In this document: positions 26,552 through 30,273 of the stretch, piece by piece | How positions within the stretch are numbered: the stretch's first letter is position 1 | Layout: each line of letters starts with the position of its first letter | Source: Eledone cirrhosa | Taxonomy: Eukaryota | DNA length: 64,000 nucleotides | Assembly (NCBI GenBank): GCA_964016885.1 | Contig: OZ024756.1 | Coordinates: forward strand, 4,898,001-4,962,000 | Direction of reading: 5' to 3' | Program-made: the position numbers and the translations under genes | Notes under the pieces: generated by a model | Database searches by the model: none | The model's input: only the letters and a program-made list of their open reading frames with translations | What the model was told of the DNA's origin: nothing

Positions 26552-26554
<3 letters not shown>

Positions 26555-26959
26555 GTCTGTATACATAGATGTATGTACGTATATATACTTATATTTAGGT
26601 AACAGCCGTACTAAGAGTGAGAAATGAAATTTCGTTTCATTTTTTCCGTATATCGTTTTCGGTACCCCGGCCGATTAACTCACTCGATATGCAAATTAGG
26701 CTGCTCAGCCGTTAATATGCATAAGGAAAGTATATACTTTCAGACGTTTAGCCATCTGGCAGGAAGGTATGCGTTGCTGACGATAGCTAATAAGCTTGAA
26801 ACTAGTACAGCGTTCCTTTGTCAGTGTTGAACAAGTGAGCAACCATGGTTGCTAGACACTGTACGACTTAATTCGGGATGTTTGTTTACAAACACACCGA
26901 GTATTATAATAAATGTTATGTTCGGTGAATCCATACGTACATATATATATGTGTGCATG

Positions 26960-27018
<59 letters not shown>

Positions 27019-27121
27019 TACTGTACGTCTGTATACATATATGTATGTACGTATACATACTTATATTTAGGTAACAGCCGTACTAAGAGTGAGAAATGAA
27101 ATTTCGTTTCATTTTTTCCGT
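26552..27121 (+). mobile_element. retrozyme-like element: 472-bp monomer plus 98-bp terminal direct repeat, in (TA)n
   Basis: 26552-26649 is repeated at 27024-27121, with an internal hammerhead. Paralogue at 29758-30273. Confidence 0.85.
26771..26813 (+). ncRNA. minimal type I hammerhead ribozyme motif
   Basis: gcgttg-CTGACGA-t-agct-aata-agct-t-GAAA-ctag-TA-cagcgt. All core nucleotides are intact. Predicted cleavage is after GUA at 26807. Confidence 0.85.
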
Positions 27122-27123
27122 TT

Positions 27124-27196
<73 letters not shown>

Positions 27197-27198
<2 letters not shown>

Positions 27199-27668
27199 TT
27201 TTGAGTTTATGTTGGTTGTATACCAACACCTCAGCAAGCAGGCTGGAGCACTCGACGAAGTGCGCAGGTTGGTTTGGTTACTCCGCCGGAGTAGTGTAAA
27301 ATAAAGTTAAATAAAAGTCAAATGATTAAAATTTAGCTTCGTTTATTACTGCTATATATATTTCAGTGACAGCCATCTTTGGCTGTGACCTCTTCAGGCA
27401 GTTTGAATTAGTATGGTATAGACAAGTACATATGTTGTTTAGGTGTATAATATTGTCAATACTCTTGGGTTGTTATTTCACTGAGGAACTGGGCATATCA
27501 GAGTATTGACAATATTATACACCTAAACAACATATGTACTTGTCTATACCATACTAATTCAAACTGCCTGAAGAGGTCACAGCCAAAGATGGCTGTCACT
27601 GAAATATATATAGCAGTAATAAACGAAGCTAAATTTTAATCATTTGACTTTTATTTAGCTTTATTTTA
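27197..27668. mobile_element. foldback hammerhead element in (TA)n
   Basis: Near-perfect 169-bp inverted arms 27297-27465 / 27500-27668. Confidence 0.88.
27563..27617 (+). ncRNA. minimal type I hammerhead ribozyme motif (mirror copy on the - strand at 27348-27402)
   Basis: actgc-CTGAAGA-ggtcacagcca-aaga-tggctgtcact-GAAA-tatata-TA-gcagt, followed by AATAAA. Confidence 0.82.
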
Positions 27669-27681
27669 TATATATATATAT

Positions 27682-27925
27682 ATATTTATTAAAATAACAG
27701 ATTAAAGTTTAAGCAAAGAATCGCTGCTTTCACCCTTAACGGGATCTTCTGAAAGAGTTTCTGAAGGAGTTTCAGAAGATCCCGTTAAGGGTGAAAGCAG
27801 CGATTCTTTGCTTAAACTTTAATCTGTTATTTTAATAAATATTTGCTCTACGGTTCTTATATATTTGATATATATTTATCCTTATCGAGCCCTCTTTGGA
27901 TTTTAGTCTTCAAATTTATTATTAT

Positions 27926-27928
<3 letters not shown>
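27682..27928. mobile_element. foldback element with degenerate hammerhead core
   Basis: Arms 27682-27754 / 27770-27842. Core reads CAGAAGA-tccc-gttaa-gggt-GAAA. The tail is homologous to 59361-59440 and the arm start to about 33810-33835. Confidence 0.7.
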
Positions 27929-27959
<31 letters not shown>

Positions 27960-27962
<3 letters not shown>

Positions 27963-28246
27963 GAAGTTATATTCAAATTGTTGGTATACAACAAGCAAAT
28001 ATTTTTATAACTGATATAAAGCACTCAACAAATTATTGGTGTAAAAATATGGTATATTAACAAATGGAAACTATATTTATAAAACCATATTTATTTCATT
28101 ATACATATTTCAAGGACACCAAGTCAAATTATATATTATATTTTATCTGATGAAAGCGCACCATAATTTGACTTGGTGTCCTTGAAATATGTATAATGAA
28201 ATAAATATGGTTTTATAAATATAGTTTCCATTTGTTAATATATCGT
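27960..28246. mobile_element. foldback hammerhead element, family A
   Basis: Arms 28053-28132 / 28163-28242, with (TA)n flanks. Confidence 0.85.
28139..28203 (+). ncRNA. minimal type I hammerhead ribozyme motif
   Basis: tattttat-CTGATGA-aagcgcacca-taatttgact-tggtgtcctt-GAAA-tatgta-TA-atgaaata. Confidence 0.8.
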
Positions 28247-28384
28247 ATATATATATATAATTGGTGTGGGATACTTAAAGCGTCCGTAAGTGGTAGGCCG
28301 TTTGAGCACGCGATGCTCTTACAGAGCAGAGTATAATATTACATAAGAAACGGAGAATCAGTGGGGCGACGAATATGTGATATA

Positions 28385-28448
<64 letters not shown>

Positions 28449-28449
<1 letters not shown>

Positions 28450-28690
28450 GATATTAATAAATGGAAACTATATTTATAAAACCATATTTATTTCATTATA
28501 TATATTCCGAGGTTGACTTTGCCTTTCATCCTTATGGGGTCGATAAAATAAAGTACCAGTAATGCACTGGGTGATTGCTGGCCTTGTGCCTAAAGTAGAA
28601 ACAATTATATATATTTCAAGGATACCAAGTTAAACTATGGTATGCCTTCATCAGACAAAATACAATATATAACAGTTTTATAAATAGACA
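28449..28690 (-). mobile_element. family A hammerhead element interrupted by a 5'-truncated SINE (28507-28603)
   Basis: 12-bp duplication ATTATATATATT at 28495-28506 and 28604-28615. Minus strand reads CTGATGA-aggcatacca..tggtatcctt-GAAA-tatata-TA. The right boundary is uncertain. Confidence 0.75.
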
Positions 28691-29757
28691 TTGACGTACC
28701 CTTTTAAAAAGTGACCGTTGCTTTTGGAGGCCATCAGGATAGTGGTTTGTTTACTTTAGTAAGTCATAGTGTTAAGAGTAAGTAAAAAGATGGAGAGAGA
28801 GAGAGAGAAACGTGGAGAAAAGAAAGGTAGAGATAGATAAAGAAAAAGAAGAAAGCAAAAAGAAAAGAGAACAGGAAAAATAACGGGGAGATGTCAAACC
28901 ATCAGGCAGAGAAAAAAACTCAAGAGAGAGATATATAGAGATAGAGAGAGGGGGAAGAGACCGAAAACCTTAAGTTATGTCATATTAAGTTGAGTTAACA
29001 ATTGAGATGAAATGAATAAATAAAATTAGAAATATTAATATTCATGAATGGAATATAGATATATAATATGAGAAATTACACATTGTTTAATTATAATTAG
29101 ATATTTAGTTTAAAAATTGAGATCAATATATTAAAAATTGGAATTTAAACATTATAAAATATATATATTGCTAGAGAAATTACCTATCGTATATCACATA
29201 CACATAGGCAAAGGTACATAAATATATATATATACACACTCACTCAGAAAATATACACTATATCTACTCCCGCATATAATATATACATACAAAGCACAAG
29301 TGATTTTTTATTTATTGCTATACATTCCTTGTGTTATTAATTACAAATTTTAGTATATATATATAAATATATAGGATTAACTTTCATGCATTTATGGCTG
29401 TTAAGTTATGCATATCTGCAATCAAAAACTGCATGTGTAAGCAGGTACATTCACACCCATAATTCTTAGCTATACATGAATAGATATGTGTGTGCATCTT
29501 CACCCAATTGGTATACACGCGTCACTCATGCATATATACAGACAGACATATAATCATAAAAAAAGCATATATCACATGTATATGTATGTCAATACACATA
29601 TATAGATACATAGGCCGTATATAGACATAAGTATACATCAATATATAACATAGTACAATTGAGTATATAAAATACAAAAGGATTATATTTTGGAAATATA
29701 ATTATATCAATATAACTTAAAAGGCAAACGAATTCTACAAATATATATATATATATA

Positions 29758-30269
29758 TACGTATACATACATACTTACATTTAATTTTCGGCCGTAATAA
29801 GAGTGAGAAATGAAATTTCGTTTAATTCTTTTCCATTTATCGTTTTTGCCCGGCCGACTAACTCACTCGATATGCAAATTAGGCTACTCAGCCGTTAATG
29901 TGCATAAGGAAAGTATATACTTTCAGACGTTCAATCATCTGTCAGAAAGGTATACGATGCTGAGGATAGCTAATAAGCTTGAAACAAGTACATCGTTCCT
30001 GTGTCAGTGTTGAACAAAGGGGCGACGATGGTTGCCTGAACACTGTACGGCGTAATTCGGGCTGTCTGTTTGTTTACAAACAAACAAACCGAACATTATA
30101 ATAAATGTTCGGTAAACCCATACGTACATATATATATGTGTGCATGTATGTATATATTTACATACTACTGTACGTCTGTATACATATATGTATGTACGTA
30201 TACATACATATTTGCATTTAAGTATCAGCCGTACTAAGAGTGAGAAATGAAATTTCGTTTCATTCTTTT

Positions 30270-30273
<4 letters not shown>
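29758..30273 (+). mobile_element. second retrozyme-like element: 437-bp monomer plus 79-bp direct repeat, in (TA)n
   Basis: 29758-29836 is repeated at 30195-30273. Colinear with 26552-27121. Confidence 0.85.
29954..29996 (+). ncRNA. minimal type I hammerhead ribozyme motif
   Basis: acgatg-CTGAGGA-t-agct-aata-agct-t-GAAA-caag-TA-catcgt, with a perfect 6-bp stem I. Confidence 0.85.

Follow-up and report, generated by a model that had tools for sequence, protein, structure and literature searches.

The metazoan retrozymes that lack long terminal repeats (non-LTR retrozymes), which carry hammerhead ribozymes, have already been published, as has their link to Penelope-like elements. Their movement in animals has so far been a hypothesis, in which circular RNAs are the templates and Penelope-like elements the helpers, and a second question is the role of hammerheads for Penelope-like elements. 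The latter elements leave a one-sided tail, as described in the available text of PMC8557442, and as far as that of PMC11167929 goes, this tail is the span between two internal start sites of reverse transcription, with both strands being extended. Here we analyse two hammerhead-bearing copies, 3.2 kb apart, in a window of the Eledone cirrhosa genome, by which we mean the whole 64,000-nucleotide (nt) stretch at positions 4,898,001 to 4,962,000 of the forward strand of contig OZ024756.1 (assembly GCA_964016885.1). These copies are likely to be 5'-truncated insertions of a non-coding retrozyme of approximately 430 bp, apparently moved in trans by the reverse transcriptase (RT) and GIY-YIG endonuclease of a Penelope-like element, and probably from a circular monomeric RNA. 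The interest of the locus rests on family-level footprints, which are unusually clear here, rather than on the two window copies, which are ordinary, partly decayed insertions.

The family and its insertion footprints

Pattern counts made over the 3.0-Gb assembly show the copies to be members of an abundant family. The 26-nt pattern spanning the hammerhead core and stem II had 12,153 exact matches, a minimum for the hammerheads of the family, with no match to its reversed control, and a pattern for the 3' end matched 9,819 times, again with none to its control. The family occurs on all large contigs, includes 70 full units of 417-480 bp, and forms arrays in which unit directly follows unit, reaching eight in one arm; the tandem multimers that a preliminary description of the window had proposed looking for were therefore found. 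The two copies belong to different subfamilies, their nearest relatives being 96-97% identical. Leaving stem II free raised the count to 18,436 matches and revealed a 310-bp sister family (3,745 matches), while a pattern for further families with a stem II started by G or C had no match, and neither did the 26-nt core pattern in metagenome or viral contigs. This sister family is young: at G000:C1:36481400-36491300 (L251), L249, L250 and L166 its units, nearly identical to one another, form head-to-head arrays reaching 27 units, which makes it the better choice for experimental work.

The retrozyme-like character proposed in the preliminary description holds across the family, in which the direct repeats are general and the core is conserved, and we are highly confident that it represents a metazoan non-LTR retrozyme, a known kind of element. 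No publication describing this family, or a tail in retrozymes, emerged from a literature search that was weak on subscription journals; with Repbase and Dfam outside the comparison, a catalogue entry for the family as an unclassified repeat may already exist.

Insertion arms were mapped on contig C1 in 354 kb, made up of 117 merged stretches that surround most of the first 100 matches to each pattern, and 178 of 187 were kept, the nine others being mirrors within palindromes or scoring under 80. Two positions, separated by 52-56 nt, account for most of their 3' ends: 90 arms stop at the long end and 62 at the short end, against 23 elsewhere and three at an edge. Behind 75 of the 90 long and 51 of the 62 short ends (126 of 152 together) lies a TA run, compared with two of the 23 other ends. 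The 5' breakpoints, by contrast with the fixed 3' ends, are scattered round the whole unit. Most copies comprise 0.4-1.7 units, often head to head, and 25 of the 178 arms cover at least two cut sites, which is an upper bound, as a few alignments bridge separate insertions. Both ends could be classed in 31 of 49 head-to-head pairs, the 18 left out having an end that was interrupted or at an edge; 29 joined a long to a short end, one was long and long, and one short and short (p 2e-7). The sister repeats this rule with a tail of about 35 nt: all 10 readable pairs, from 17 loci, are long plus short, leaving out locus L254, where the alignment bridged two blocks, and six single-arm loci. Hence the family displays the Penelope-like hallmarks of 5' truncation, partial tandems and an inverted arm, and of insertion into microsatellite or AT-rich targets.

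Candidate helper elements

There is no RT or GIY-YIG open reading frame (ORF) inside the unit. The genome holds 10,596 GIY-YIG candidates, and the long ORFs at GIY-YIG matches combine an RT with a C-terminal GIY-YIG domain; five of the six inspected have a Neptune-type cysteine linker, which was seen in the candidate helper ORFs of L151 and L152 (Table 1). Autonomous elements of this composition, with the Neptune-type linker, show the same tail, TA junction and long-plus-short pattern in L162 and L165. Given this agreement, and the published mechanism of the tail, our analysis makes a Penelope-type helper very probable. Matches to the full unit in L145 and L162 were rejected as evidence of a partner, as these are neighbouring insertions, the one in L162 being a separate insertion in the element's TA end. 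Separately, two such autonomous families carry U3-A8 hammerheads with a palindromic helix III.

Fold and conservation of the hammerhead

Each unit carries a canonical CUGANGA / GAAA / UH core with helices I-III. The predicted fold comprises an outer 3-bp helix I' and a stem I of 6 bp, then CUGANGA, a stem II of 4 bp with U.U as its closing mismatch, GAAA and, set around a palindrome, a helix III of 2 bp, with cleavage predicted after GUA. The canonical G10.1-C11.1 pair closing helix II is replaced by U.U in family and sister alike; this mismatch, helix I' and the second family 3' end, 52-56 nt upstream, had gone unmentioned in the preliminary description. The window contains nine hammerhead motifs, compared with a mean of 0.3 in 20 shuffles. 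The Rfam hammerhead models gave no match here, whether the gathering score was applied or E was allowed to reach 10.

The preliminary description was accurate on stem I (gcgttg/cagcgt in copy 1, acgatg/catcgt in copy 2), the core (CUGACGA versus CUGAGGA), the identical stem II and the GUA ends at 26807 and 29990. Its view that both hammerheads are intact stands for copy 1 and fails for copy 2, in which a private change turns the palindromic helix III from ACUAGU to ACAAGU and shifts the energy of the self-duplex from -4.8 to +0.9 kcal/mol, such that copy 2 is not intact for cleavage as a dimer. This allele was present in three of 176 sampled units, and at about 0.3% of depth in three runs whose contig sets come from one sample, perhaps the source sample itself.

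The same description inferred selection for a folded ribozyme, a conclusion that survives on other evidence than was offered. Its evidence was weak, as the G at core position 7 is private to copy 2 (0 of 171 units) and the double change in stem I amounts to one subfamily-level event. The pair concerned is tolerant, being U.G in 72, G.U in 38, A-U in 37, U.U in four and something else in eight of 159 units, and it also occurs as C-G. Selection on the fold is better indicated by the sister, which was found by a search placing no constraint on its stems. Its stem I, stem II, outer helix and palindrome (ACGCGU) all differ from those of the family, yet still pair. In an alignment of family and sister, with 14 rows hand-chosen by the analyst, 98.6% of cells were paired, compared with 31-47% for slid controls, and two-sided changes affected 10 of 16 pairs, the palindrome among them. 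Common variants are absent from 12 core positions.

Template of reverse transcription and alternative explanations

If the template were linear RNA cut by the hammerhead, complementary DNA (cDNA) should end at a distance of 283 nt from the long end. For a set of 53 arms selected on their 3' end alone, one of 36 passes stopped within 6 nt of the cut site, and two of 37 within 15 nt, compared with 3-12% at nine control positions. As 5' truncations are not piled up at the cleavage site, cut linear RNA was not the main template, which must instead have been continuous, in the form of a circle or an uncut multimer. The preliminary description had allowed for a circle or a tandem transcript, and the data accommodate both while leaning towards the former. 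Units share a subfamily within an arm and across arms, with 0.65 and 0.47 common-variant differences per 100 nt respectively, versus 4.7 between loci. Every unit in both arms of the young sister arrays carries the marker variants (17 of 17 being fixed in L249, nine of nine in L250 and four of four in L253), and the arms reach 27 near-identical units. Such uniformity of insertion-specific variants requires a one-unit bottleneck, favouring a monomer circle over read-through of a multimer, and we consider a circular template rather more probable than its absence. 

The core itself provides a further comparison. G8 and G12 are essential to hammerhead chemistry. Changes at these positions were less common than the tolerated C7U, with 594 matches for C7U, 266 for the inactivating G8A and 130 for the inactivating G12A; among the first 100 of each, 27, two and four respectively lay within 1 kb of another match, while decay at other CpG sites was symmetric (53 vs 46). 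Cleavage is abolished by G8C in the available text of PMC11167929.

The proposed mechanism would begin with transcription of arrays with at least two units, in which neighbouring hammerheads would pair by way of the palindromic helix III, excising monomers to be ligated into circles. A Neptune-type protein would then nick both strands of a TA repeat and prime cDNA at two internal sites of the RNA, one per strand, and synthesis would roll on for anything from 0.1 to many units, before the two cDNAs joined head to head or a single arm remained. In its fullest form, to which we give even chances, the family would be a fossil record of rolling-circle target-primed reverse transcription, in which a Penelope-type dimer copied a hammerhead-made monomer circle from two fixed internal starts, one for each nicked strand of a TA repeat. 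If true, this would explain head-to-head arms, of as many as 27 identical units, in which exactly one end is tailed, and would tie the retrozyme circles of animals mechanistically to Penelope machinery without sequence homology to the helper.

Several observations weigh against this account. The two-sided pair changes come almost all from one split, between family and sister, and common variants were not significantly rarer in the hammerhead than elsewhere (3 of 43 vs 35 of 218, p 0.16). In 45 GIY-YIG loci, taken from the 150 that were scored among the 10,596 candidates, no terminal region is homologous to the unit, and a resemblance of the tail to those of autonomous families, seen by eye, proved to be at chance level (best p 0.04 over eight tests). 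About nine of 12 C7U clusters represent one sublineage, meaning the C7U excess is pseudo-replicated, and three insertions carry an inactivating core change in two units; hence this excess is only modest evidence. Some arrays, with identical alternating units in L168, L266 and L279, have grown at the DNA level; subfamily markers are mixed within an arm at L193 and L220, which a single monomer circle does not explain; and insertion in vitro, in the available text of PMC11167929, could dispense with the hammerhead and used uncut RNA as the main substrate.

The nearest alternative retains the same element and Penelope-type enzyme, and has the uncut, multimeric transcript from a genomic array take the place of the circle; the hammerhead would serve RNA processing or be a passenger. 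Reading through the cut site fits it equally well, and it draws on the mixed arms, the doubly inactivated cores and the in vitro result just described, as well as the cleavage of only one of nine frog retrozyme dimers in the available text of bioRxiv 10.64898/2026.07.22.740005. It is nevertheless unlikely, as it would have to pass every variant fixed in both arms through a one-unit bottleneck, generate the longest near-identical arms, account for arms without a mirrored unit pattern in L169 and L262, and leave the fold and palindrome conserved across families. It is very improbable that there is no separate non-autonomous family, and that the units are terminal pseudo-LTRs of an autonomous Penelope-like element left behind as 5'-truncated ends. 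The tail, head-to-head arms and TA targets are indeed common to autonomous elements here, one of which has a U.U-closed type I hammerhead; this explanation is nonetheless at odds with the direct succession of up to eight units per arm, with breakpoints spread round the whole unit, and with the lack of homology at the ends of the 45 GIY-YIG loci. An all-against-all comparison for a common upstream body had its matches swamped by opposite arms. Least credible of all is a satellite-like repeat spread by DNA-level duplication, with the hammerhead a relic: the higher-order identical repeats of L168, L266 and L279 are what such a process would leave, but the dispersal over all large contigs, fixed 3' and ragged 5' ends, long-plus-short pairing and TA-specific junctions are not, and the polarity of the ends contradicts it.

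Two further candidates were rejected. The alternating array of five hammerheads in L168 was considered as the product of a dimer circle; its alternate units are identical (0 of 327 positions different) and its neighbours differ (15 of 327), and we therefore take it for a DNA duplication of recent date or an effect of the assembly. Adenosine-to-inosine editing fixed by reverse transcription is unsupported, private A>G changes numbering 84 of 11091 and T>C changes 61 of 9754 (p 0.28). In family units on contig C1, private G>T exceeds C>A on the RNA-sense strand (52 of 5390 vs 21 of 5303, p 4e-4).

The two window copies and their surroundings

The preliminary description correctly recognised two diverged copies with direct terminal repeats. 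Copy 1 has a period of 472 and a 98-bp repeat (96 of 98 positions identical), and copy 2 a period of 437 and a 79-bp repeat (72 of 79 identical); these repeats are variable partial units, not LTRs. Copy 1 had been ended at 27121, whereas its actual end is 27125, the long end of the family usually lying 4 nt beyond the point originally proposed (TTTAT). The internal TA run of this copy is expanded, and its 5' boundary is blurred by the TA run upstream. Coding capacity was rightly judged absent, with the longest ATG frames, read round the circle, being 68 and 89 amino acids (aa). As circles, the monomers have predicted folds far more stable than those of shuffled sequences (z -7.8 and -11.4, 40 shuffles), partly because of the TA-rich palindrome. 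Each copy is a single long-end arm with one hammerhead, and monomer release needs two, according to the criterion in the available text of bioRxiv 10.64898/2026.07.22.740005; hence the window copies are likely to be products, rather than sources, of circles.

Table 1. Features of the two window copies and the candidate helper ORFs
Feature	Position	Strand	Remarks
Copy 1	26552..27125	+	U.G subfamily (stem I pair); one full unit and a 5'-truncated partial one; ends at the long 3' end
Type I hammerhead of copy 1	26765..26817	+	predicted cut after 26807
Outer helix I', copy 1	26765-67/26815-17		
Stem I, copy 1	26771-76/26808-13		
Core, copy 1	26777-83		
Stem II, copy 1	26784-97		closed by U.U
GAAA, copy 1	26798-801		
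Helix III, copy 1			palindromic
Optional tail of copy 1	27070..27125	+	between the family's short and long 3' ends; holds a hairpin
TA run 5' of copy 1	26468..26551	.	likely a split target, in part the TA run of the element itself
TA run 3' of copy 1	27126..27196	.	likely target microsatellite
Copy 2	29758..30273	+	A-U subfamily (stem I pair); one full unit and a partial one; ends at the long 3' end
Type I hammerhead of copy 2	29948..30000	+	predicted cut after 29990
Private changes of copy 2	29964; 29986		position 7, tolerated; helix III palindrome broken
Optional tail of copy 2	30221..30273	+	between the family's short and long 3' ends
TA run 3' of copy 2	30274..30319	.	likely target microsatellite
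Candidate helper ORF	L151:1775-5062		1096 aa; GIY-YIG match and RT domain
Candidate helper ORF	L152:2809-5622		938 aa; GIY-YIG match and RT domain
Candidate helper ORF	L153:1988-4519		844 aa; GIY-YIG match and RT domain

Other palindromic insertions with hammerheads surround the copies and form a TA-rich nest, which accounts for two independent copies being so close together. Adjoining the TA run after copy 1, a head-to-head palindrome at 27297-27668 has 169-nt arms with a hammerhead in each (27397 on the minus strand, 27568 on the plus strand), with a long stem II and a TA-palindrome helix III; it belongs to another Penelope-type family. Directly after copy 2, the palindrome at 30320-30859 has 162-nt arms, each with a hammerhead (30474 minus, 30720 plus) showing a U3-A8 core variant, whose helix II region is 58 nt long and whose helix III is palindromic. 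Further minimal-type motifs with a long stem II occur at 28147 plus (within 28042-28700) and 11614 plus, with similar cores at 28654 minus and 7796 minus, the minimal-type motifs lying partly in inverted repeats. A perfect 73-nt inverted repeat between TA runs, at 27682-27842, is probably the end of another repeat family.

An octamer motif at 26689-26696 and 29872-29879, about 80 nt upstream of the hammerhead, resembles the small nuclear RNA-type promoter of newt satellite 2. As a promoter element it was rejected, being no better conserved than the rest of the unit. Elsewhere in the window, fragmented ORFs at 13250-15059 resemble, by eye, the RT of a non-LTR retrotransposon; long minisatellite arrays occupy 1-7410, 25370-26127, 38750-50935 and 61400-64000, with periods of 51, 40, 19 and 49; and a weak partial transfer RNA match at 56940-56996 on the minus strand (30 bits) is possibly the head of a short interspersed element.

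Comparison with known systems

Within one genome, the family and its younger sister supply mapped start sites of reverse transcription, a strict paired-end rule and thousands of copies, alongside intact candidate helper ORFs of 938 and 1096 aa. Hence both the movement of animal retrozymes and the role of hammerheads for Penelope-like elements become testable in vitro.

As far as the available text of PMC7229834 (Cervera and de la Pena 2020) describes them, the metazoan non-LTR retrozymes, such as the axolotl HHR_Amex2 and the mussel repeats, likewise consist of a non-coding tandem unit of a few hundred bp with a low guanine and cytosine content, bearing one type I hammerhead per unit and present in thousands of copies. 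HHR_Amex2 further has the same U.U mismatch at the foot of helix II, and its helix III is likewise short. However, circles of 170-400 nt are shown there, whereas the units here are somewhat longer and their circles only proposed; most copies here are short insertions, often head to head, and they have a tail or paired ends, which the text available from that source does not describe.

The frog non-LTR retrozymes regarded as non-autonomous Penelope-like derivatives (Li, Clavereau, Pollet, bioRxiv 10.64898/2026.07.22.740005) are similar in forming monomers, dimers and multimers and in co-occurring with autonomous Penelope-like elements, again to the extent of the text available. Their link was drawn from this co-occurrence and from pseudo-LTR similarity, with no mention of a tail in that text, whereas the link here comes from insertion footprints, no homologous pseudo-LTR having been found among the 45 loci compared. 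The non-autonomous Chlamys elements such as MRC1, in the available text of PMC8557442, also form pseudo-LTRs and multicopy head-to-tail insertions in microsatellites; the family here differs from them, as their 3' end resembles that of an autonomous partner and they mostly lack a canonical hammerhead.

The Neptune-clade Penelope-like elements, in the available portions of PMC8557442 (Craig et al. 2021), PMC11167929 and PMC4209133 (Cervera and de la Pena 2014), have a tail of 30-40 nt and a minimal hammerhead, compared with the 52-56 nt, canonical-size hammerhead and absence of an ORF here, and the strict pairing of long and short ends contrasts with the in vitro work of Frangieh et al. 2024 (PMC11167929), where, in the text available, the strands did not differ in start site. 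What is shared with these elements is the architecture of the insertion, with its partial tandems, inverted arm truncated at the 5' side, tail confined to one end and TA targets, together with a hammerhead whose helix III is palindromic.

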